Source: a phage | NCBI GenBank assembly: GCA_037431425.1 | Contig: GCA_037431425.1_4129.2 | DNA length: 64,000 nucleotides | Strand: one strand, 5' to 3' | Shown here: positions 3,253-61,522 of the stretch, piece by piece | Numbering within the stretch: the stretch's first letter is position 1 | How the letters are laid out: the number at the start of each line of letters is the position of its first letter | Translations under genes and position numbers: made by a program | The notes under the pieces: model-generated | What the model saw: only the letters and a program-made list of their open reading frames with translations | Told to the model about the DNA's origin: nothing | The model's database searches: none

Positions 3253-6200
3253 TTAAGCGGTACGTTGAGCAATAAACATATCTGCTACTGAACTTACACC
3301 ATCGTAAATTACCTGATAGATAGTTACAGAGTTTGCAGTTTTATTTAGAGTCCCATCAACAACAGCATATGTACCATCAGTAGTAAAGTTTCTATTACCA
3401 GTTGCATCTTGTTTAACATAAATGTATACTGATGATGCTTTTCCACCACCGATTAGACCAGTGATTGGTGCTAGAGTAGTATCTTGATCAAGAGTGATGA
3501 AGTATACGTTGCTAGTACCGTCAGGGGTCCAAGTACCATTCGGTGCAATAACAGAGGAAGTTACTTTACTTGGAATAACATCATACTTTTTGGTAGTTAC
3601 GGTTGTAGTGGCGAGTTCTGCGTTGGTTGTAGTTAACTTACCAGTAACAGTTACTTCTTTATCAAACACCGCATTTTCTTTGAAAGTTGGTGTTGAATTA
3701 ACAGTTAGTGTGTCAGTATTAGTATTACCTAAAACCACACTACCACTTGCTGTCATCAAACCAGAAACAGTTAGTGTACCACCAATAGTTGCATTACCAG
3801 TTACTGATGCACTAGCAAGTGTAGCTGCACCAGATGTAGTTATTGTTGTAACAGATGCTGCCTCTAGTGTGGTTGCACCAGTTGCGGTAAGTTTACCATC
3901 AACTACTAGATCACCAGTTACGGATGCACCACCGGACATTGTTACTGCCCCACCGAATGAACCAGTTGTAATTACTTCAAGTGTGTTACCTTTTAGTAAT
4001 TCAGTTGCTGTGATACTTGTACCAGCGGTAATGCTTGTACCCGCAGAAACAGTATTAGTTGCAGTTAAGGACTTCACAGCTACATCAGAGTTAGCTTGGT
4101 TAAGTTTAGCATTTAGAGTACCTGTTACTGTGAAGTCACCGTTGTTAACAACATTACCATTGATAGTTAGGTTGTTATTTTGTGAACCGACATCACCAAT
4201 TGTTGCTGATTTAGAAATTAACTCAGCACCAGCGGTAATGTTGCCAGCAGCACTGATATTGTTTGCTGCAACAACTGCATAAGGTTCAATTGTTTGACCA
4301 CTAACATCAATATCTGCGTTAATACCACCATCAACACGCAAAGAACCAGCAATATATGTATTAGGGAAAATCTGAACAGTTTCAGTGTGTTCACCGACCT
4401 GTGTACCAACAATAACATTAGATCCAGTTTTCACTGCACCAGAAGTTGTTAGAGAACCTACTGTTGCTTTGCCAGTAACACCTAGTGTACCGCCAACAGT
4501 TGCATTATTAGTTACTGCCAATGCTGTTCCTTCACCATTCAGTGTAATTGATGGAGCAGTTGCTTTACCAGTTACATCTAGTGTACCACCAACAGTTGCA
4601 TTACCATCTGAATGTATTGTTGTTGCAACAGAAAGACTGTTTGCAATTACATCCGCACCAGTCAAATCCAATGCACCTGGTGTTAATGTACCAGTAATGT
4701 TAACATTATTACCAAAGGTTGCTGCACCAGTTACATCTAGTGTAGTGCTAAATGTACCAGAAGTTGCAGAGATTGCACCAGATTCAAGTGAACCAACAGT
4801 GGTTTTTCCAGTTACACCCAGTGTACCACCAACTGTTCCATTTGTTGTAACTTCTAGTGTTCCAGTACTTAGATCTTTTGCTGTCACTTTACCAGATGCG
4901 TTAACAGTTGTTGTTGTAACACCACCACTTAGGGTGCTTGTCCCAGTAACACTGAGTGTTTTTGCTGCACTAACGCTGTTTACAGTAAGATCAGCACCTG
5001 ATAGGTCTAAACCACCTTCAGGAATAAAATTACCCTTAACTGTTAGTTGTTGAACAGTACTGTCACCAGTTACATCTAGTGTAGAAGCAGTCAAACCACC
5101 ATTCATACTTGCTGCACCAGTTACATCTAGTGTAGTTGTTACAGTTGCACTGTTTAGTGTGGAGCTACCGGAAATATTAGCACTAGGTGCAGTAATAGAT
5201 CCTTTTACAACTTGTACATCACCCGCAACAACATCAATACCACCAGCATTAACTGTTAGTTTTTCAGCAGTATTCAACGTACTTGAAATTGTTGTTGCAC
5301 CAGTTAAGGTTGTAGTTCCAGCTACACTTATGTTTCCAGAGATAGATGGATTACCTGTAATGTCACCAGTAGTGAGAACCAATTCAGTACCTACAGTAGT
5401 AGAACCAGTACTTTCTAGTGTTACACCAACGATGTTTGCAGAACTTAGGTTAATAGTACCATCAACAGTTAAGTTACCGTGAACTGTCGCATCACCAAGT
5501 GAATTTAATGTTTTCACTGAAACATCAGTTTTACTAAGGTCAATTACACCCGCAGTAAGTGTTCCAGATACTGCCAAATTACCAGTTATTGCTGTATTTT
5601 TAGTAATAGATACTGTTTCTGATGCTGACGTAATGGAGCCAGCAGTAAGTGCCCCACCAATGGTTGCATTGTTAGTTACGGTTAACGCTGTTTCTTCACC
5701 AGATAGTGTTAAAGAAATACCATTCATTTCACCAGTAATATTTGCCGATGCCGCAGAAATATCACCAGCAACTACCGCATTTGTTGCGTTTAGGGTTGTT
5801 GTGGTAATTTCAGTACTTTTCACTTTAGGTAGTGCGTTGATACCATCTTTACTATTAACTGTAATAATACCAGTACTTGTTAGAGATTTAACAGATACAT
5901 CAGCACCACTTAAATCAACTGTACCAGAAACAACTAGATCGCCACCAATATTAGCTCCTTCTGTTGTAGTGATTGATTTTGCATTAACTTCAGTGTTACT
6001 CAAATCAATTGCACCAGGTGATACAGTTCCAGAAACTGTGAGATTACCAGTAACTGTAGTATCATTAGAAATAGATACACCATCATCATTGCTAATTGTT
6101 GGGGTTTCAATTGTAACAGCTTTAACTTTACCAGAAGAAGTCATGTCAGCAACAGTAGATGCACCAGTAACATTCAAATTAGTAATATTTGCAGTTGTTG

Positions 6201-42719: not shown

Positions 42720-43737
42720 TAAAGCAATTACATTCACTGATATTCACTTGGGATTAAAGAATAACAGTAAACAACACAATGAAGATTGTTTAAACTTCAT
42801 TAAATTTATGATAGATGAGGCAAAAAAGAATAATATCAAAGTTTGTGTTTTTATGGGAGATTATTTTCATAATAGAAGTAATATCAACATTCAAACACTA
42901 AACTATGGTTTACAGATTCTTCAACTACTGAATGACAATTTTGAAAAAGTATATTTTCTTGTTGGGAATCATGATATGTACCATAAGAACAAACGTGATA
43001 TCACAAGTATCAATATGGCTCAAGTATATGAAAATATCGAGTTCATCAATGAAATCACAACATTTGACGATTGTACATTCATTCCATTTATGATTGAAGA
43101 TGAATATAAACTATTACCTCAACTAAAAAGTAAGTATGTTTTCGGTCACTTAGAATTACCAGGGTACTTACTTAATAAGATGGTAGAAATGCCAGACCAT
43201 GGGAAAGAAACCGATGGTTCTTTTAGTGGGTGTGAATATGTTTTTAGTGGGCATTTTCATAAAAGGCAAGCAAAAACAACATCTAAAGGAACTCGTGTTG
43301 TTTATACTGGTAATTGCTTCCCACATAATTTTTCCGATACGTGGGATGATGCAAGAGGTGTAATGATTCTCGAACACGATAAAGAACCAATTTTTAAATC
43401 GTGGGATAGTGCACCAAAATATCGAACATTCACACTTTCCGAATTATTGACTGACCCCAGTTATTATCTTCAAGATAATACAATTTCTAAAGTTCAAATT
43501 GATATATCAATAACAACGGATGAGATTAGTTTTATTCGTGATACTTTTACTAAACTATACAACATTAGAGAGTTTAATGTTGTAACAAGTAAACAAAATG
43601 TATCAGAATTAATTGAAGATGGTGTCAATTTTGAAAGTACTGAATCAGTTGATGAGATTGTTTTACAACAAATCATGGAAATTGATTCACCAATGTTTGA
43701 TAAAAATCTTCTAATCCAAATTTACAGATCATTATAA
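42706..43737 (+). CDS. 47: Recombination endonuclease subunit, T4 gp47 / Mre11 (SbcD)-like
   Basis: Phosphoesterase motifs TDIHLG, GDYFH, GNHDMYHKN, GHLELPGY, FSGHFH; start moved from track TTG at 42688 to ATG at 42706 (RBS AAAGGA). Confidence 0.8.
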   Translation: MALFDKAITFTDIHLGLKNNSKQHNEDCLNFIKFMIDEAKKNNIKVCVFMGDYFHNRSNINIQTLNYGLQILQLLNDNFEKVYFLVGNHDMYHKNKRDITSINMAQVYENIEFINEITTFDDCTFIPFMIEDEYKLLPQLKSKYVFGHLELPGYLLNKMVEMPDHGKETDGSFSGCEYVFSGHFHKRQAKTTSKGTRVVYTGNCFPHNFSDTWDDARGVMILEHDKEPIFKSWDSAPKYRTFTLSELLTDPSYYLQDNTISKVQIDISITTDEISFIRDTFTKLYNIREFNVVTSKQNVSELIEDGVNFESTESVDEIVLQQIMEIDSPMFDKNLLIQIYRSL

Positions 43738-43745
43738 GGGACTAT

Positions 43746-45893
43746 ATGCTAAACATTACACGTATATCTATGCGAAACTTCTTTTCATTCGGTAATGCAC
43801 CACAAATTATTGAATTGAATAGTTCTGACATTTCATTAGTACTGGGTCAAAATAATGATGCAGTTATTGAAGGCGGTGACAGTTCTGGACGACGAAATGG
43901 TGTAGGAAAAAGTGCAATTATTCAAGGATTAGTTTTTGGATTATTTGGAAAAAGTATTGGGAATGATATTAAAATCCCCAACTTAGTTAATAAAACTAAT
44001 GGGAAAAATTGCGAAGTTGTGGTGGAGTTTGAAAAAGACGGTGTGCAATATATTGTTGAGCGTGGGAGAAGTCCCACGTATTTCAATCTTGTTACTTTAG
44101 GTAAAGATGACAAAATTGAAGATGAATCAAGGGGTGAAAAGAAAGACACTCAAGAAGATTTGAATGAAATTCTTGGAATATCCCAATTATTATTTGAACA
44201 TATTGTAGTACTGAATGCAAACGTTGAACCTTTCTTGGCGTTATCCACACAAAAACAACGTGATATGATAGAAGAACTTCTAGGTATAACACAGTTAACA
44301 GAAAAAGCCGAAATATTAAAGGAGATGTACAAGGATACTAAACGCTTAGCAGAGCAAGAAAAGTTTAAAAATGAAACAGTTGCTGCAAGTAACGAACGTA
44401 TTCAAAAAAGTATTGAGGTTCTTCAAGAACAGGCAAACCAATTTGAGATCGATAAAAGTAATAGAGTAGCGAAGTTAAATGAAGAGTTGAATATTTATAA
44501 AACTTTCGACTTCAATGAACTCTATAAAGCTGCTGAAGAGAAAGAGAAAGCTCTTATTCATAACACAAAGCGTAATGAAATAGAACGCCGTGTACAAGAT
44601 TTAGCTTTAAAATTTGATGCATATGACCGTGAGATTGAATCATCCAAACGTGCACTAAAACTAAGCATTGATAAACTAAAAACTATTGATATTAGTGCTG
44701 AGTTGGAAAATCATAATGAACTAGAGATATGGAAACAGTTAGAAGACATTCTTAAAGAGAATAATAACCAAAAACGTTTCAAAGAGCAAAAGCTAAACTC
44801 ACTAAAAGTTGCATTAAAAGGGTATGAATGTTCAATTAATGCTGAAATTGACAAATTATCAACCGTTGAAAATAGTAAATGTCCACTTTGTATGTCAGAA
44901 TTGGAACATAATGAACATACTTCTTCAATTAAAGATAAAATTCAAAGTACTATTGACGATCTTCAAGCCAAAATTGACAGTTCTTCTTCTGAAATTGAGA
45001 TTTTACTTAAAGAAATTGAGAGTATTGAGATTTTTGATATGCCACCTAAGCCTGTGACATATTATAATACACTTTCAGAAGCACAAATGCATGAACATAA
45101 GCTTCAAGAATTGATCAAAAAGAGTGAAGAAGAGCCAATAAACATCTATGCAAATGAACTTATGTCATCATATGATGAACTTAACTCATATGAACTAATG
45201 GAAGTTCCAGATACATTAAACAAATATGAAGTTAAAGAGTTGGAAATGACCGTAAATTCATTATCACAGCAATTAGATCGTGAATTGAAGACTACTAACA
45301 CATTTATTAGTCAAATTAATACCCTGAAGACTGATTCTTTAGTACCAATCGATTATAGTGACTATAATAATCTTGATAAAATGTCAAATCACCAAGATTT
45401 CTTGGTTAAATTACTTTTAAACAAGGATTCTTATGTCCGTAAACGTATTATTGAGCAAAATATCTCATATTTGAATACACGACTTCAGTACTATATCGAT
45501 ATGTGCGGTTCTGAGCATAATGTTGTGTTTTTGAATGATTTGAGTGTTGAAATTGAGAAGAGTGGGCAGTACTTTGACTATAAACAGCTTAGTCGTGGTG
45601 AGCGTACAAGGGTAAACATCGCATTATCTTGTGCTTTCCGTGATACATACGAGTCATTATATCAAAGTATCAATCTAATAGCACTAGATGAAGCTTGTGA
45701 TGTTGGTCTTGATTCAAGTGGTGTTGTTAAAGTGTGGTCAATCTTCAATGACATGGCTGCTATCAGAAATAAAAATGTATATATCATCTCACATAGAGAA
45801 GAACTAGTTTCTAAGACTGAACATATACTTAAAGTAACCAAAGAAGATGGTTTTAGTACTATAAGTTACTGTACAATTGATGATATCTATTAA
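43746..45893 (+). CDS. 46: Recombination ATPase, T4 gp46 / Rad50 (SbcC)-like (715 aa)
   Basis: Walker A GRRNGVGKS near N-terminus, long coiled-coil middle with CPLC zinc hook, C-terminal signature LSRGERTRVNIALSCAF and Walker B IALDEA. Confidence 0.8.
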   Translation: MLNITRISMRNFFSFGNAPQIIELNSSDISLVLGQNNDAVIEGGDSSGRRNGVGKSAIIQGLVFGLFGKSIGNDIKIPNLVNKTNGKNCEVVVEFEKDGVQYIVERGRSPTYFNLVTLGKDDKIEDESRGEKKDTQEDLNEILGISQLLFEHIVVLNANVEPFLALSTQKQRDMIEELLGITQLTEKAEILKEMYKDTKRLAEQEKFKNETVAASNERIQKSIEVLQEQANQFEIDKSNRVAKLNEELNIYKTFDFNELYKAAEEKEKALIHNTKRNEIERRVQDLALKFDAYDREIESSKRALKLSIDKLKTIDISAELENHNELEIWKQLEDILKENNNQKRFKEQKLNSLKVALKGYECSINAEIDKLSTVENSKCPLCMSELEHNEHTSSIKDKIQSTIDDLQAKIDSSSSEIEILLKEIESIEIFDMPPKPVTYYNTLSEAQMHEHKLQELIKKSEEEPINIYANELMSSYDELNSYELMEVPDTLNKYEVKELEMTVNSLSQQLDRELKTTNTFISQINTLKTDSLVPIDYSDYNNLDKMSNHQDFLVKLLLNKDSYVRKRIIEQNISYLNTRLQYYIDMCGSEHNVVFLNDLSVEIEKSGQYFDYKQLSRGERTRVNIALSCAFRDTYESLYQSINLIALDEACDVGLDSSGVVKVWSIFNDMAAIRNKNVYIISHREELVSKTEHILKVTKEDGFSTISYCTIDDIY

Positions 45894-54368: not shown

Positions 54369-54376
54369 TATAAATA
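54369..54376 (+). promoter_or_regulatory. T4-type late promoter box (TATAAATA) upstream of scaffold gene
   Basis: Exact TATAAATA 47 nt upstream of ATG at 54424; overlaps a 10-bp inverted repeat AATATCTGTA/TACAGATATT (54373-54400). Confidence 0.45.
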
Positions 54377-55577: not shown

Positions 55578-55585
55578 TATAAATA
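55578..55585 (+). promoter_or_regulatory. T4-type late promoter box (TATAAATA) upstream of major capsid gene
   Basis: Exact TATAAATA 45 nt upstream of ATG at 55631. Confidence 0.5.
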
Positions 55586-55630: not shown

Positions 55631-56806
55631 ATGTCACAACTACTAAATGAATCCAAATGGGTAGCAGTAAAAGAGAAACTAGTTGAAGGTCTACAGGGTA
55701 CTCGTAAGTCTGTAATGGAAACTGTTCTTGATAACCATCGTAAAGTTATGCTAACTGAATCTGCAACTTCTGGTGCAACTACTGCTGGTAACATCGCTAC
55801 TCTAAACAAAGTGATTCTACCAATTATGCGTCGTGTAATGCCAACTGTTATTGCTAACGAAATTATCGGTGTTCAACCAATGACTGGTCCAGTTGGTCAG
55901 ATTCACACCCTACGTGTGCAATATGCTGATAATGCACCTGGTGTTATTGCTGGTGAAGAAATGCTTTCTCCATACAAAATTGCAAAATCCTACTCTGGTG
56001 AACTAAATTCTGATAATAGCAACCCACAAGCTGCACCTACTAGTCAACTAGAAGGTACTATGGGTCGTCGCGTAAATATCCGTATCCTACGTGAAACTGT
56101 TGAAGCGAAATCACGCCGTCTATCTGCACGTTGGACTGTTGAATCTGCACAAGATGCACAATCTCAACATGGTGTTGATGTTGAAGCTGAACTAATGGCA
56201 GCAATTGCACAAGAAGTTACTGTAGAAATCGACCAAGAACTACTAAGCCGTCTACGTGCACTACCAGGTGCTGCTGCTGTAACTTATGACCAATCTAAAG
56301 TTACTGGTGTTGCAACTTTCGTAGGTGATGAACACGCTGCTCTAGCTACCCTAATCAACCGTCAAGCAAACGAAGTTGCTCGTCGTACCAAGCGTGGTGC
56401 AGCAAACTGGGCTGTTGTTTCCCCAACTGCTCTAACCATTCTACAGTCTGCAACTACTTCTAGCTTTGCACGTACCACTGAAGGTACTTTTGAAGCACCA
56501 ACTAACGTTAAGTTTGTAGGTACTCTAAACAGCACCATGCGTATCTTTGTTGATACCTATGCAAGTGATTCTGAAGATATCCTAATTGGTTATAAAGGTA
56601 ATGCTGAAACTGATGCTGGTGTATTCTATTGCCCATACATCCCACTAATGGCATCCGGTACTGTTATGGACCCTAACACTGGTGAATTGGTTACAACTTT
56701 CCTAACTCGTTATGGTTACGTACAATTGACCGACAGCACTTCCTCTCTTGGTAACGCTGCTGACTACTATAGCAAAATCGCTATCAAAAACGTTACTTTC
56801 ATGTAA
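55631..56806 (+). CDS. 23: Major capsid protein, T4 gp23-like (391 aa)
   Basis: GVQPM motif; TVEAKSRRLSARWTVESAQDAQSQHGVDVEAEL parallels T4 gp23 VIEAKSRQLKAAYSIELAQDLRAVHGMDADAEL; N-terminal VMLTE/SA resembles the gp21 cleavage site; RBS AAGGAG. Confidence 0.9.
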   Translation: MSQLLNESKWVAVKEKLVEGLQGTRKSVMETVLDNHRKVMLTESATSGATTAGNIATLNKVILPIMRRVMPTVIANEIIGVQPMTGPVGQIHTLRVQYADNAPGVIAGEEMLSPYKIAKSYSGELNSDNSNPQAAPTSQLEGTMGRRVNIRILRETVEAKSRRLSARWTVESAQDAQSQHGVDVEAELMAAIAQEVTVEIDQELLSRLRALPGAAAVTYDQSKVTGVATFVGDEHAALATLINRQANEVARRTKRGAANWAVVSPTALTILQSATTSSFARTTEGTFEAPTNVKFVGTLNSTMRIFVDTYASDSEDILIGYKGNAETDAGVFYCPYIPLMASGTVMDPNTGELVTTFLTRYGYVQLTDSTSSLGNAADYYSKIAIKNVTFM

Positions 56807-56848
56807 TTATAATCGATTTAAAAAAATAATCAAGAAATTAAAAACAAA

Positions 56849-56878
56849 AAGGGACTCTGATGAGTCCCTTTTCTTTTA
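56849..56878 (+). terminator. Intrinsic terminator after the major capsid gene
   Basis: Stem AAGGGACTC / GAGTCCCTT, loop TGAT, followed by TTTTCTTTTATC. Confidence 0.65.
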
Positions 56879-56886
56879 TCTAAATA

Positions 56887-56916
56887 TTGACAAACAGTAC
56901 TGAAACATGTTATGCT
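56887..56916 (+). promoter_or_regulatory. Sigma70-like promoter for the endonuclease-like gene
   Basis: Consensus TTGACA (56887-56892) - 18 nt - TGtTATGCT (56908-56916). Confidence 0.4.
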
Positions 56917-56948
56917 TATGTAAATATAGTAACTATAGAGGAATTTAA

Positions 56949-58547
56949 ATGCTTGGTGAAATCAAACAGTTTTTGAAGACGAAAAAGTTAAGAGGTGTAA
57001 AATCTGCACTTCAAGCAAAACCATTATATGTTGATTACTTAAAAGAAATTTATGGTGATATCGAACTGAATGTTATCATTTACATGGTATTGAATGATAT
57101 TAAAGAAATTCCAAAAGCAAAATGTGGTAACGATGTAAAGTTTGTTAATTTAATTGAGGGATTCAGTGACAGATGTAATCTACCGTTTCAGGGAAAAAAT
57201 AAATGTAAAGTTTGTTCTGTAATGATTTCTGAAAAAAGAAAAAGTACATACAAGAATAAAACTGGGTATGATAATCCCGGACAGAATCCAGACGTTCGTG
57301 ACAAGATGTCAAGAACTAATATTAATCGTTACGGAACTACTGTTCCCCAGCAGACCGATGTTGTCAAAAAACGTTCAATTGAGACAAATATTCTTAAGTA
57401 CGGAGTTGAACATCCCTCAATGTTGGAAGAAAACAAAGAGAAACGCCAAAAAACTGTTTTTGAAAAGTATGGTGTAGATAATGTACTTAAAACTACACAT
57501 AAACGCCTTGAAGAACGTTATATGAATTTCAAGAAAAAATATGAATATTCTGGAAAATATACATTACTTAGTTCAATTGAAGAGTATGATTCTTCTGTTA
57601 ATGGTGTTAAAAGTATTCTTTTATGGAAATGTAATACTTGCAACAATACTTTCAATAAAGTTGCACCGTGTTTAAGATGTCCTAAATGTGAACCATACTC
57701 TTCCAGTACTGAAGAAGTTGAATTATATGAATATATTTCATCAATCTATGACGGTGTAATTATCCAGAATAGTAGGAATATTATCACAGGTAATGAGATT
57801 GATATTTTCATTCCAGAACTGAAACTTGGTATTGAGTTCAATGGTGAGTACTGGCACAGAGACGAAGTGCGTGGTAATAATTATCATCAGAGCAAATATA
57901 TTCGTATGAAGGAAAATGGCAACAAACTTATTACTATATATAGTAATGAATGGCGTAATAAAACTGACATCGTTAAGCGTAGATTAAAAAGCATTTTAAA
58001 TACTGATAATAGAGTGTACGCTCGTAAGTGTACTATCGGTTTAGTTCAGAATGATGTATGTGATGAGTTTTTGAATACATATCATATACAGGGTAAGTGT
58101 AGTTCTTCGATTCGCGTAGGTCTGTATTTGGAAACAGAACTTGTTGCAGTAATGACATTCGGTAAACCAAGATTTAACAAAGAATATGAATATGAACTAC
58201 TCCGTTATTGTTCCAAAGATACAGTGGTTGGTGGTGCTTCAAAACTGTTAAAATATTTCGAAATTACACATGTTCCAAAATCTTTGATATCTTATGCTGA
58301 TATGAACTGGAGTTCTGGTAATCTATATGAAGCAATTGGGTTTCAATTTGTTGAAATGACGAAACCTGGATATTTCTATTATGATAAAAAAACAGAAACC
58401 ACATATTCCAGATACCAATGTCAAAAGCAAAAATTAATATCAAAGTTTGGATTTCCTAATACAATGACAGAGAATGAAATGACACGATCACTTGGTTATT
58501 ACAAAATATATGATTGTGGTAATTTAGTATATAAAAAAGAATACTAA
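56949..58547 (+). CDS. Putative free-standing homing-endonuclease-like protein (532 aa): triple 23-aa repeat, zinc ribbon, Vsr/DUF559-type nuclease core
   Basis: Repeats NPDVRDKMSRTNINRYG / QTDVVKKRSIETNILKYG / EENKEKRQKTVFEKYG; CNTCN...CLRCPKC; EIDIFIPELKLGIEFNGEYWH resembles the PD-(D/E)xK core of Vsr-like endonucleases; inserted between capsid and fibre genes. Confidence 0.4.
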   Translation: MLGEIKQFLKTKKLRGVKSALQAKPLYVDYLKEIYGDIELNVIIYMVLNDIKEIPKAKCGNDVKFVNLIEGFSDRCNLPFQGKNKCKVCSVMISEKRKSTYKNKTGYDNPGQNPDVRDKMSRTNINRYGTTVPQQTDVVKKRSIETNILKYGVEHPSMLEENKEKRQKTVFEKYGVDNVLKTTHKRLEERYMNFKKKYEYSGKYTLLSSIEEYDSSVNGVKSILLWKCNTCNNTFNKVAPCLRCPKCEPYSSSTEEVELYEYISSIYDGVIIQNSRNIITGNEIDIFIPELKLGIEFNGEYWHRDEVRGNNYHQSKYIRMKENGNKLITIYSNEWRNKTDIVKRRLKSILNTDNRVYARKCTIGLVQNDVCDEFLNTYHIQGKCSSSIRVGLYLETELVAVMTFGKPRFNKEYEYELLRYCSKDTVVGGASKLLKYFEITHVPKSLISYADMNWSSGNLYEAIGFQFVEMTKPGYFYYDKKTETTYSRYQCQKQKLISKFGFPNTMTENEMTRSLGYYKIYDCGNLVYKKEY

Positions 58548-58566
58548 AATACATTATTGAAACAAG

Positions 58567-58926
58567 GTGGTTTCGGTGTTAACTGTATATATTTTTAAGA
58601 AAGAAGAGTACTTAAAGAGTCAGTACTCTAAAATTGAGATTAACGTTCCCTATGGAACATTGGTTGGTTATGACGAATCTAGCGAAACCTTGTTTTATAA
58701 TGATGATAAACTTGACTATAGCATTGATTCATTTATTGAAGATATACTTGATTGTAATACAGAAGATATGTTGTATGAAGAATACTTAGATGCGTACAGA
58801 GAACGTATGTCAAAGTTACATGCTGACGCTCCAGTACTAAACATTACACAAAAATCTTCTGAATTTGAACCACATAATCCGTTTCAACGTTTAATTGATA
58901 TTGGTTTAAAATTCACTATTAATTGA
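58567..58926 (+). CDS. Hypothetical protein (~117-119 aa)
   Basis: Track start is GTG at 58567; an in-frame GTG at 58576 has a better RBS (AAGGTGG); no motif recognised. Confidence 0.4.
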   Translation: MVSVLTVYIFKKEEYLKSQYSKIEINVPYGTLVGYDESSETLFYNDDKLDYSIDSFIEDILDCNTEDMLYEEYLDAYRERMSKLHADAPVLNITQKSSEFEPHNPFQRLIDIGLKFTIN

Positions 58927-58965
58927 TAGATAAATATCTCCATATTAATGATGGAGATTGAATCT

Positions 58966-59274
58966 ATGTCACAAATATGTTATGTTATCATAAATTCTGC
59001 GTGGCCTGATTATGTTAAGATTGGGTTCACATCAAAATCCGAAATGACTGAGCGTTTGAGAACATATCAGACAGCTACACCTTTCAGAGATTTTGAGGTA
59101 TACCATGAGGTGTATTTTGATGATGCACGTTTGGCTGAAAAAGAAATTCATAAAAGACTAAAGCAAATGAATGCAATTAGACAACCGAACACTGAGTGGT
59201 TTAAAATGTCTAAAAAGATCGCCGCAAACATTATTGACTCCATAAGGGATGATATGGATAATGATATGTTATAG
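58966..59274 (+). CDS. T5orf172-domain (GIY-YIG superfamily-like) small protein (~102 aa)
   Basis: ICYVIINSAWPDYVKIGFTS...RL..YQT...EWF pattern typical of the T5orf172 domain; start taken at third ATG (58966), 9 nt after GGAG; track start 58948. Confidence 0.45.
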   Translation: MSQICYVIINSAWPDYVKIGFTSKSEMTERLRTYQTATPFRDFEVYHEVYFDDARLAEKEIHKRLKQMNAIRQPNTEWFKMSKKIAANIIDSIRDDMDNDML

Positions 59275-59314: not shown

Positions 59315-60928
59315 ATGAGCATAAGTTTTAATAACCCACTGGATACAATGACCAGTACTGGTGCTAATGGTTCTTTGGAACTAATAGTGCTTGGTGGTAC
59401 ACCAACTAACCCAAGACCTATTCGTTTTAATTCATCATCAGTTATTATGCCAGTAAAAACATTACCGACTGGTGAACAAGGTGCAATGGTTTTTGATAGA
59501 AACGAATTAGTGTTAAAGTATCATAATGGTACTAGTTGGATTGCAATATACGACAATGATACTATTTTAGAACCAATTAGGGTTTCGTTGGATGAAGTAA
59601 ACAGAAAATTAAACTTAAAGGTTGAAAGTGTAACATACAGTAGTAGTTCTGTTCCAAGTGCAAGTATCAGTGGAACAAACTTAAACATCGTATTCCCTAC
59701 TGTTTCTAGTGGTGGTGGTTCAGGGCCAACTGGCCTTTATACTTCACTTAAACCTGGTGTTATCACACAGTACGCATTGACTTCTGGTCAAAACGTTGCT
59801 AGTATACGTGAACAAATGTCTGGACAAACCAATGGTCAAAATGGACGAAATGGTTCGCAAGCTGCTCCATGGAAAACATCAGATGGATGGTGCTTTGCTG
59901 ATGGTATGTGGTGGCAATGGGAAGGTGAAAATGGCACAGTTACTAAACAAGTACCAAATCTTAACAGAAACGCGTATTTAAAAGGGATATCCACATCAGG
60001 GGTAACCAAAACGGATAGTGTTATTGGGAGCAGTGGTAACATTAGCGGAACTGTTTTGAGTGTAGCACAATTGCCTTCACATTCATTTAGTTTTAGCGGA
60101 AGAACTGATGCTGCTGGTCGCCACAGCCATAGTCAAGCACTAAAAGGTATGGACCGAAGTGGTCTAAATGCGTTAACATCAAGTAATGATAACGGTATAC
60201 CAACAGTAATTAGTAACATTAATGAAGCACCAGACCATGTTCACTCATTTAGTGGAAACACAAACACACTTGGTGGGAATCAGCCACATTATCATGGTAT
60301 CAGTAATGTTGATGTTGAGCACTTTAACGTGGCATATTTATATAACATTGCAGAATCAAACGTAGCACTGAGTGAAAAAGTAGCAAATACGCGTTATGTA
60401 CTGAAATCAGGTGATACAATGACTGGTTCTTTAACTATTGCCAACAGTGCATCTATTAAGTCTAATGATACATCATTAGTTCTATATTTCCGTAACGCAA
60501 GCGGCGGTGAACGTGCGGCTGTTTACCATAATTCATCAAACAACACGTTGCGATTACGTTCCGGTGGTGCTGAAGTAGCAGTAAACTCTTCAGGTAACTT
60601 GTCTGCTCCTTCATTAACTGTTTCTAATAATTCAGCTACTGTTGGTGGTAAAAATATTGTTCGCACTATCAATGGTACAGCGGCTGATGGTAATGGTAAT
60701 GTTTCATTGCAAATTAATTCGAATAACGTACAAAGTATTCGTTTGAGTGCAAGAATTGAAACAAGTAAAATTCCAGATTCTTCATGGACATACGCACCTG
60801 AAGGTGCACTCATGGATGGTGTATGGATTTCAGTGAACGGTAGTTCAGGAACTCATTTGGAACGTATTAGCTATCGTTATATTCAAATGCAGGTAAATGG
60901 CAATTGGGAAACGGTACGACAACAATAA
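59315..60928 (+). CDS. Tail fibre protein with tail-collar / gp12-like receptor-binding region (537 aa)
   Basis: WCFADGMWWQWEG and histidine clusters (LPSHSFSFSG, HSHS, HVHSF, PHYHG) resemble the collar domain and the T4 gp12 C-terminal region; followed by a chaperone-like gene. Confidence 0.55.
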   Translation: MSISFNNPLDTMTSTGANGSLELIVLGGTPTNPRPIRFNSSSVIMPVKTLPTGEQGAMVFDRNELVLKYHNGTSWIAIYDNDTILEPIRVSLDEVNRKLNLKVESVTYSSSSVPSASISGTNLNIVFPTVSSGGGSGPTGLYTSLKPGVITQYALTSGQNVASIREQMSGQTNGQNGRNGSQAAPWKTSDGWCFADGMWWQWEGENGTVTKQVPNLNRNAYLKGISTSGVTKTDSVIGSSGNISGTVLSVAQLPSHSFSFSGRTDAAGRHSHSQALKGMDRSGLNALTSSNDNGIPTVISNINEAPDHVHSFSGNTNTLGGNQPHYHGISNVDVEHFNVAYLYNIAESNVALSEKVANTRYVLKSGDTMTGSLTIANSASIKSNDTSLVLYFRNASGGERAAVYHNSSNNTLRLRSGGAEVAVNSSGNLSAPSLTVSNNSATVGGKNIVRTINGTAADGNGNVSLQINSNNVQSIRLSARIETSKIPDSSWTYAPEGALMDGVWISVNGSSGTHLERISYRYIQMQVNGNWETVRQQ

Positions 60929-60940
60929 GGAAATGTGCAA

Positions 60941-61450
60941 ATGCAACTAACTAATTTTAAGATGTACGATAAAGAAGATGGAAATCCAAATTCTTTGTAT
61001 ATGATGTCCGATGAAGGCATGGATTGGTATGAATCTCGTGGTCTGTTTGACATTAACAAAGCCAAATTTATGTATGATGCCAATGGATTGATAGTTTCTG
61101 CATCATATGACATTTATGATCTAGTACCTTTGGGGTTTAGTGTTTCTGAAATTGAGTACGATGGTGACGTTAACAAACTTTATGGTATGATTTATGATGG
61201 TAAAACTATCAAGGAGTATGTAGAAACCAAAGAAGAAAAGATTGAACGTCTTAAGATTGAATTGGAAAAATTAAAATACTCTGCAATTCAACAGCTTGGG
61301 CATTTGAAAACAGCTATGGATCTTGAGTTAGCATCAGATGAAGAAGCTGTATTGTTTGCAAAATTAAAAGAGTATGTAACACAATTGTCGTCAATTAAAC
61401 CAGTAGATATGGTCAAAAAAACATTTTCATTTCCAGTCAAACCTGAATAA
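60941..61450 (+). CDS. Tail fibre assembly chaperone-like protein (~169 aa)
   Basis: C-terminal KEEKIERLKIELEKLKYSAIQQLGHLKTAMDLELASDEEAVLFAKLKEYVTQL resembles Tfa/gp38-type chaperones; follows a fibre gene; track start GTG at 60935, ATG at 60941 has RBS AAGGAA. Confidence 0.5.
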   Translation: MQLTNFKMYDKEDGNPNSLYMMSDEGMDWYESRGLFDINKAKFMYDANGLIVSASYDIYDLVPLGFSVSEIEYDGDVNKLYGMIYDGKTIKEYVETKEEKIERLKIELEKLKYSAIQQLGHLKTAMDLELASDEEAVLFAKLKEYVTQLSSIKPVDMVKKTFSFPVKPE

Positions 61451-61486: not shown

Positions 61487-61522
61487 GTCATCTCACCAGC
61501 GGTGGTGAGGTGACATTTTTTT
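61487..61522 (+). terminator. Intrinsic terminator after the chaperone-like gene
   Basis: 11-bp stem GTCATCTCACC / GGTGAGGTGAC (one G-U pair), loop AGCGGT, then A + T7. Confidence 0.6.

Follow-up and report, generated by a model that had tools for sequence, protein, structure and literature searches.

The region between the major capsid gene and the tail-fibre gene of a jumbo phage raises the question of which of its genes are mobile and which belong to the lineage. It was studied in a window of 64,000 nucleotides (the whole stretch of DNA analysed; contig GCA_037431425.1_4129.2 of GenBank assembly GCA_037431425.1), which corresponds at 99.7% identity to Escherichia phage ph0011 (OP557969.1), a 348-kb jumbo phage of the genus Asteriusvirus. 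Three open reading frames (ORFs A, B and C) are located here between a gp23-type capsid gene and a tail-fibre gene, and coordinates as well as profile matches agree with their description in an original prediction made from the sequence of the window. That prediction had interpreted all three as one inserted cluster of endonuclease-like genes. The present analysis indicates that ORF A (532 amino acids, aa; 56949..58547, + strand) is probably a free-standing gene for a Hef-family homing endonuclease, lodged in the spacer between the capsid terminator and ORF B. Only ORF A and its sigma70-like promoter are variable at this junction; ORFs B and C are fixed residents, i.e. ordinary conserved genes of the lineage and not mobile.

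The GenBank record OP557969.1 labels ORF A, like the tail-fibre genes, 'hypothetical protein'; for ORF A this annotation would be corrected to Hef-type homing endonuclease gene, and the neighbouring T5orf172 gene (ORF C) is to be regarded as a conserved lineage gene. The best-conserved part of Hef-like proteins is a domain resembling Mom of phage Mu, whose function in a homing enzyme has yet to be explained. The crystal structure of Mom and the assays available for it now allow this function to be tested directly.

Hef-type architecture of ORF A

Over its full length, ORF A matches PHROG 3339 'homing endonuclease' (8.4e-136), and Hef of phage U5, the founding member of the family, aligns with aa 37-529 at 31% identity (BLASTP, E 4e-46). 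Relatives of ORF A detected by tblastn occupy 1138 places in 432 phage records, often several per genome, and many of them are annotated 'Hef-like homing endonuclease'; such multiple copies and wide spread are typical of homing endonuclease genes. Two published accounts are the source for the activity of Hef: U5 hef is described as a 'unique endonuclease' cleaving nrdB in a review of T4 mobile DNA (PMC2988022), and Hef-type enzymes are assigned to the Vsr-like EDxHD family typified by I-Bth0305I (PMC3239194). The ph0011 genome holds two more Hef-like places outside the window, one of which encodes a 664-aa paralogue (P0009, 'endonuclease domain-containing protein') 35% identical to ORF A. Within the window, a search for paralogues of ORFs A, B and C yielded none, only weak matches (E 0.02-0.3). 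Among these are similarities at 42997-43113 to the N-terminal Cys region of ORF A (E 0.3) and at 44166-44369 to ORF C (E 0.023), both obtained with tblastn and probably due to chance.

From N- to C-terminus, the protein comprises a cluster of cysteines (C59, C76, C86, C89), three 23-aa helical repeats (aa 107-175; 57267..57473), a zinc ribbon (aa 226-247; 57624..57689), a Vsr-like 'EDxHD' nuclease core of PD-(D/E)xK type (aa 253-352; 57705..58004) and a Mom-like GNAT domain (aa 353-532; 58005..58544), all encoded on the + strand. Repeats, zinc ribbon and nuclease core had been recognized in the original prediction and are corroborated here, the C-terminal domain had been missed. The repeats (aa 107-129, 130-152 and 153-175) each end in (R/K)YG and form one helix each in the AlphaFold2 (AF2) model of the protein, which has a mean pLDDT of 91.2. 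They are enclosed by a match to Pfam DUF7487 (aa 95-200, E 2e-13). The zinc ribbon, read from the sequence, has the form C-x2-C ... C-x2-C (C228, C231, C244, C247). It is conserved in the family, C228 and C231 being nearly invariant and C244 invariant, and of 40 diverse homologues representing the family 7 match Pfam Zn_ribbon_8. Conservation within the family is lowest in the repeats and N-terminal modules (pairwise identity 0.22-0.32). Together with the N-terminal Cys cluster, the repeats presumably constitute a modular DNA-binding region comparable to the NUMOD-type regions of I-Bth0305I (PMC3239194).

A nuclease fold, the detection of which had been set beforehand as a test, was found: a profile of the nuclease region searched against the PDB retrieved the catalytic domain of I-Bth0305I (3r3p, E 2.3e-8) as sole significant match. 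Aligned residues (ORF A/I-Bth0305I) are E256/E170, D285/D196, N298/N208 and H303/H213, so that the constellation of catalytic residues (E, D, N/H, H, D/H) is conserved. Family-wide, E283, E296, H303 and K316 are invariant, D285 and H313 are present in 39/40 members, and the mean pairwise identity of the nuclease is 0.45. I-Bth0305I shares with ORF A the homologous nuclease core and an N-terminal modular DNA-binding region preceding it. It differs in being intron-encoded, in its shorter length (266 aa), in ending with the nuclease domain without a Mom-like domain, and in its last catalytic aspartate, D222, which aligns with a histidine (H313) in the Hef family.

The combination of domains in ORF A, which had been considered unusual for a homing endonuclease, turned out to be the standard architecture of the Hef family, to which ORF A adds another member. 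Hef of U5 and the Hef-like endonucleases of T4-like, ViI-like and RaK2-like phages (PMC2988022; PMC3296691) have their parts arranged alike (repeat region, then Vsr-like nuclease, then a Mom-like domain at the C-terminus), and are likewise encoded by free-standing genes in intergenic spacers beside essential genes, with patchy occurrence among close relatives. Compared with U5 Hef, ORF A occupies a different site (capsid/ORF B versus nrdA/nrdB), has its own sigma70-like promoter, and carries the CxxC...CxxC zinc ribbon before the nuclease, which is absent from U5 Hef according to the alignment. A search against NCBIfam returned nothing useful.

Comparison with the copy in phage UE-S1 yielded ratios of nonsynonymous to synonymous substitution (dN/dS) of 0.18 for the whole of ORF A, with 0.11 in the nuclease part and 0.15 in the Mom-like domain, the range being 0.11-0.26 in the four domains where the ratio was computable. 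Judged by these ratios, ORF A is intact and under purifying selection.

The capsid/ORF B junction in related phages

The gp23-type major capsid gene (55631-56806, + strand; Pfam Gp23, 5.5e-90) is followed by an intrinsic terminator (56847..56872, + strand) consisting of an 11-pair stem and a T run. This terminator is retained in phages PBECO4, fEgEco12, 121Q and UE-S1 and marks the left limit of the sequence common with relatives whose site is empty. Directly behind it lies the inserted segment of about 1.67 kb (56887..58551, + strand), which contains promoter and ORF A and is missing from the empty-site relatives; its ends were derived from alignments with PBECO4 and fEgEco12 (both empty), 121Q and UE-S1, and are approximate to within about 10-25 bp on either side.

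Presence or absence of the inserted gene at this fixed site was recorded in a census of about 36 Asteriusvirus records. The Hef-like gene of ph0011 type is present in two of them (ph0011 and UE-S1), and eight have an empty site. The others comprise 13 with a full-length 365-aa gene of 121Q type, 12 with shorter or diverged occupants of about 1 kb, and one ambiguous record. In the empty-site phages PBECO4 and fEgEco12 the order is capsid gene, terminator, ORF B, ORF C and tail-fibre gene, with a gap of about 45 bp between terminator and ORF B. The same arrangement without ORF A was found in Erwinia phage pEa_SNUABM_47, the fetched example of another genus (Eneladusvirus). Empty sites in relatives had, like the nuclease fold, been named beforehand as a test, and the proposal of a homing-endonuclease-type gene beside the capsid gene holds for ORF A by its Hef homology and by this site polymorphism. 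It does not extend to an insertion of all three genes: all Asteriusvirus relatives examined, empty-site phages included, as well as pEa_SNUABM_47, have ORFs B and C between the capsid gene and the tail-fibre gene, which makes these two genes residents by the same test.

The occupants of the same spot in 121Q, Turkey3, vB_Ec-M-J, A4, slurp01 and RaK2 are unrelated endonucleases with zinc fingers and a T5orf172/MUG113 domain. The 121Q-type protein (121Q gp604) is unrelated to ORF A and has DUF4379, DUF723 and CapR zinc fingers together with a weak T5orf172/MUG113 domain; a similar zinc-finger endonuclease (gp440) is located at this spot in RaK2. Since both the ORF A type and the 121Q/RaK2 zinc-finger type are found there, RaK2-like jumbo phages have in their capsid/ORF B spacer a hotspot for at least two unrelated endonuclease families. 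The architecture termed T5orf172 homing endonuclease gene (HEG), i.e. CapR/DUF723/DUF4379 zinc fingers plus T5orf172, was reported by Barth et al. to be enriched beside capsid genes (PMC10448857), and the 121Q-type occupant shares it. The comparison drawn in the original prediction with T4 segD at the gene 23/24 junction (PMC2988022, Table 1) is apt, in that an endonuclease gene is lodged right after the major capsid gene in both cases; unlike these GIY-YIG enzymes, ORF A has a Vsr-like nuclease.

Fidelity to this one site extends to distant phages. Three of the closest metagenomic homologues of ORF A (P0004, P0006 and P0007, from uncultured jumbo phages whose contigs were fetched; 46-52% identity) are all located upstream of an ORF B homologue, in a synteny of capsid, tail-fibre and DNA polymerase genes. 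Two of them lie directly downstream of the gp23 gene, and the contig of the third ends inside the upstream gene. Between these phages and ph0011, the capsid proteins share only 76-81% identity. A lineage confined to one site across such diverged hosts, combined with presence in a minority of close relatives, reads as a signature of homing.

Motifs beside the insert were also inspected. A 'CTAAATA'-type motif at both insert ends in ph0011 and UE-S1 was considered as a late-promoter motif or target duplication and rejected; it is ascribed to chance or to leftover spacer, because the window contains no excess of TCTAAATA or CTAAAATAC. In ph0011 the insert is flanked by ATCTAAATA on the left (56878-56886) and CTAAAATAC on the right (58544-58552), and in UE-S1 by ACTAAAA on both sides. 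These short motifs are not statistically enriched and may derive from the spacer that existed before the insertion. The loop of the capsid terminator (56859-56862) reads GATG in ph0011 versus TTCG in PBECO4, fEgEco12, 121Q and UE-S1.

Putative promoter of the insert

A sigma70-like promoter (TTGACA-18-TATGCT with an upstream TG, 10/12; 56887..56916, + strand) is located 33 bp before the start codon of ORF A. It had been noted in the original prediction as a promoter of the whole cluster. Sigma70-like matches are no more frequent in the 6.3-kb region (24 found) than in shuffled sequence (28.1 expected), so that a single such site proves nothing by itself. The ph0011 site is lifted above chance by its recurrence at the same position, right after the capsid terminator, in three other independent Hef-type inserts, namely UE-S1 (TTGACA-17-TATCAT, 11/12), L014 (9/12 with TG) and L015 (TTGACT-17-TATAAT, 11/12 with TG). 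By eye, the 121Q-type insert contains TTTACA-17-TATAAT, and no such site was seen in the empty spacer of PBECO4. The site is a putative promoter of ORF A.

That the cluster is wired differently from the surrounding late genes, as had also been proposed, is plausible with respect to ORF A. The exact motif TATAAATA, the T4 late-promoter consensus, occurs about 46 bp upstream of the capsid start (55578-55585) and about 48 bp upstream of the scaffold-like gene preceding the capsid gene (54369-54376). Upstream of ORF A there is no exact copy, only versions with one mismatch, which are uninformative because the DNA is AT-rich. Across the window the motif is not enriched (6 found versus 10.3 expected), but the copies before the capsid and scaffold-like genes are suitably positioned. 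No terminator-like site was found on the + strand between 56872 and 61487, so that transcription from the imported promoter would continue through ORFs B and C and the tail-fibre genes, and it may drive these genes as well.

The Mom-like domain and the alternatives to homing

A Foldseek search of the PDB with the AF2 model ranked the phage Mu Mom crystal structure (8bv8, E 8e-7) first for the C-terminal domain of ORF A, ahead of generic GNAT acetyltransferases. Its GNAT fold is closest to that of Mom also in a helical insertion, which stands at the place of the HTH-like (helix-turn-helix-like) insertion of Mom. PHROG 1384 'Mom-like' matches aa 358-487 (1.5e-8), and Pfam Mom (PF25680) is matched at E<=0.01 by 23/40 family members (best 7.7e-8), with no generic acetyltransferase model among the matches listed for the 40. 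When the domain alone was searched against the PDB with phmmer no match was obtained, and the link to Mom required profile and fold searches. ORF A itself scores 14.5 bits against Pfam Mom, below the curated cut-off of 27.1, and its domain is therefore termed Mom-like rather than a demonstrated Mom enzyme. Within the family this domain is the best-conserved part, with a mean pairwise identity of 0.50 and 19 invariant columns.

Residues required for Mom activity are partly retained, as judged by sequence-profile alignment to Mu Mom rather than three-dimensional superposition. Mutation of H58, R111, Y159 and D149 abolished or drastically reduced the activity of Mom (PMC13219725). The equivalents of the first three in ORF A (H379, R419 and Y460) are invariant in the family; that of D149 (D451) is D in 33/40 members, and N in U5 Hef. 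S124A Mom is catalytically dead and R151A Mom has no detectable activity in vivo (PMC13219725); the S124 equivalent (position 424) varies across the family, and at the R151 equivalent (position 453) ORF A has N, an R being present in only 16/40 members. ORF A accordingly lacks the full set of H58, R111, S124, D149, R151 and Y159. W48, important for dimerization of Mom, corresponds to an invariant F374 in the Hef family. Compared with Mu Mom (PMC13219725, PMC7261163), the domain of ORF A further differs in its fusion to nuclease and DNA-binding modules and in the lack of conservation of the Y59 equivalent across the Hef family, and modification of DNA by ORF A is hypothetical. As the most conserved part across members residing at different sites, the domain is most likely a DNA-engaging and/or dimerizing module and not the determinant of specificity. 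A role as scaffold is suggested by the need of a Vsr-like domain with a single active site to dimerize for a double-strand break.

Homing of ORF A may be envisaged as follows. Transcribed from its own sigma70-like promoter, presumably by the host RNA polymerase, ORF A would yield a protein placed on DNA by its variable N-terminal zinc modules and the 23-aa helical repeats. During co-infection by a gene-carrying and a gene-less phage, the Vsr-like EDxHD core, probably as a dimer in analogy to I-Bth0305I, would cut the gene-less allele at or near the capsid/ORF B junction, with the Mom-like GNAT domain acting as a constant partner of the nuclease in DNA engagement and/or dimerization. Recombinational repair would then copy ORF A, probably with flanking DNA, into the cut genome.

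Several observations weigh against this interpretation. A co-conversion tract, expected as unusually divergent flanks, was sought and gave no signal; the identity of ph0011 to all its relatives is about 90% across 24.6 kb of upstream sequence and 88-89% around the junction, so that no such tract is visible. Gene-carrying and gene-less phages hardly differ in their flanks as far as the insertion point, which makes it hard to see how ph0011 would escape its own nuclease, unless the target extends across the spacer split by the insert. Substitutions common to ph0011 and UE-S1 that might protect a target were found neither in the capsid 3' end nor in the terminator or the ORF B 5' end. The two phages have identical capsid proteins, yet their ORF A proteins are only 66% identical, which fits either independent acquisitions or fast evolution. 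These are not separable because synonymous divergence (dS) between ph0011 and UE-S1 is saturated for ORF A (1.57), and similarly high values for ORF B (0.93) and ORF C (1.52) leave old vertical inheritance with repeated loss of ORF A possible. Finally, the extreme conservation of the Mom-like domain is unexplained by a plain homing model.

It is this domain that prompts a different reading, in which ORF A is a bifunctional restriction/modification enzyme whose Mom-like domain would acylate adenines of the phage genome and whose nuclease would attack unmodified DNA of host or competitor. Fusions of Mom and restriction endonuclease (REase) in jumbo phages were interpreted in this sense, i.e. as combining momylation and restriction, by Iyer et al. 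in 2021 (PMC7824862), and the five Hef-like places detected by tblastn in phage PA5oct equal in number the 'five momylating enzymes' counted there. The 'Hef-like homing endonucleases' and the 'Mom-REase fusions' thus appear to be the same proteins, a connection that was found in no paper of the library searched. The suggestion in the original prediction that ORF A might be related to DNA modification is hence not baseless: the domain is Mom-like by fold and profile, it is the most conserved of the family, H58, R111 and Y159 have invariant counterparts and that of D149 is largely kept, and modification would solve the problem of self-cleavage posed by nearly identical flanks. This is countered by the loss of the S124 and R151 equivalents, by the score below the Pfam Mom cut-off and by the reported cleavage of nrdB by the founding Hef. 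Moreover, patchy presence at one site, alternative occupants and a site-faithful lineage suit a selfish element better than genome-wide protection, and a protective enzyme would not be expected in just two of about 36 close relatives. Homing is favoured over modification because Hef is reported to cleave nrdB, the lineage is faithful to its site, the distribution is patchy and two residues essential for Mom activity are lost; the modification reading is regarded as unlikely. An intermediate form, in which a homing endonuclease shields its own target site by modification, is possible. Extended to the Hef family as a whole, with an active Mom-like GNAT domain that (amino)acylates an adenine at or close to the site which the enzyme recognizes and so confers self-immunity, it is a doubtful proposition. 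If true, Hef-family enzymes would be one-protein hybrids of selfish restriction-modification and homing, the readings of Hef as homing endonuclease and, by Iyer et al., as momylating enzyme would be reconciled, and there would be an explanation for how little gene-carrying and gene-less alleles differ right next to the insert.

Two further readings concern the locus rather than the domain. ORF A could be a remnant, decaying or domesticated, that has lost the ability to home and persists only for a promoter from which ORFs B and C and the tail-fibre genes are now transcribed. T4 endonuclease genes have been retained through embedded promoters (PMC2988022), transcription from ORF A through the end of the tail-fibre assembly gene would meet no terminator-like site on the + strand, and the start codon of ORF B has been weakened to GTG in ph0011. 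Nonetheless, this reading is very improbable in view of the full length of ORF A, the presence of all conserved nuclease residues, the low dN/dS in its four computable domains and the expression of these downstream genes by empty-site phages, which do without it. Still less credence is given to ORFs A, B and C as one anti-defence or nuclease cassette acquired together. The three genes are adjacent on the same strand without intervening terminator, GC content is low throughout (0.28-0.33), and two of the three encode nuclease-type domains. Patterns of presence and absence already contradict a common acquisition: PBECO4, fEgEco12 and pEa_SNUABM_47 have ORFs B and C but no ORF A, elsewhere ORFs B and C lie beside unrelated occupants, relatives of ORF A occur without ORF C in L014 and L016, and ORF C is well conserved across genera with very low dN/dS.

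ORF B, ORF C and downstream genes

ORF B (58567/58576-58926, + strand; 119/116 aa) belongs to PHROG 15724 and has no assigned function. It is single-copy in 67 records covering approximately the whole RaK2-like jumbo-phage group, and directly follows the capsid region in empty-site phages. Its start codon (58576-58578) is GTG in ph0011 versus ATG in PBECO4, fEgEco12, 121Q and UE-S1; a second in-frame GTG lies 9 nt upstream (58567), and the upstream spacer has been rebuilt by the insertion.

ORF C (58948..59274, + strand; 108 aa, conserved part from 58966) consists of a T5orf172 (GIY-YIG-type) domain alone, in agreement with its earlier assignment (Pfam T5orf172, 3.9e-13; MUG113, 6.3e-13). CapR/DUF723/DUF4379 zinc-finger repeats for DNA binding, as present in 121Q gp604 and RaK2 gp440, are lacking. 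It is thereby distinguished from the T5orf172 HEGs, as it is by not being mobile: the sporadic distribution of these genes is not displayed by ORF C in Asteriusvirus and Eneladusvirus. Its identity amounts to 81-94% within Asteriusvirus and to 67-75% in jumbo phages of Erwinia, Yersinia and Salmonella, and its position is syntenic in the single locus fetched from another genus (pEa_SNUABM_47). ORF C is conserved in Asteriusvirus and Eneladusvirus, not across the whole RaK2-like group. In RaK2 (3913-4647) and the metagenomic L014 and L016, the T5orf172 gene after ORF B is missing or replaced by an unrelated ORF of 244-300 aa. The dN/dS values relative to UE-S1 (0.12 for ORF B, 0.02 for ORF C) point to strong purifying selection on both genes. 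A role in recombination or one resembling Holliday junction resolvases has been suggested for the conserved T5orf172 proteins of these phages (Iyer et al. 2021, PMC7824862). ORF C also matches the PADLOC candidate-defence models PDC-S57 (4.7e-17) and PD-Lambda-1 (1.5e-5).

Further downstream are the tail-fibre gene (59315-60928; PHROG tail fibre, 1.9e-263), a tail-fibre assembly gene (60935-61450) and the next terminator on the + strand after that of the capsid gene (61487-61514). The locus tags of the ph0011 record bear the prefix 'vBEcoMphAPEC6_', which suggests that its annotation was carried over from phage phAPEC6.

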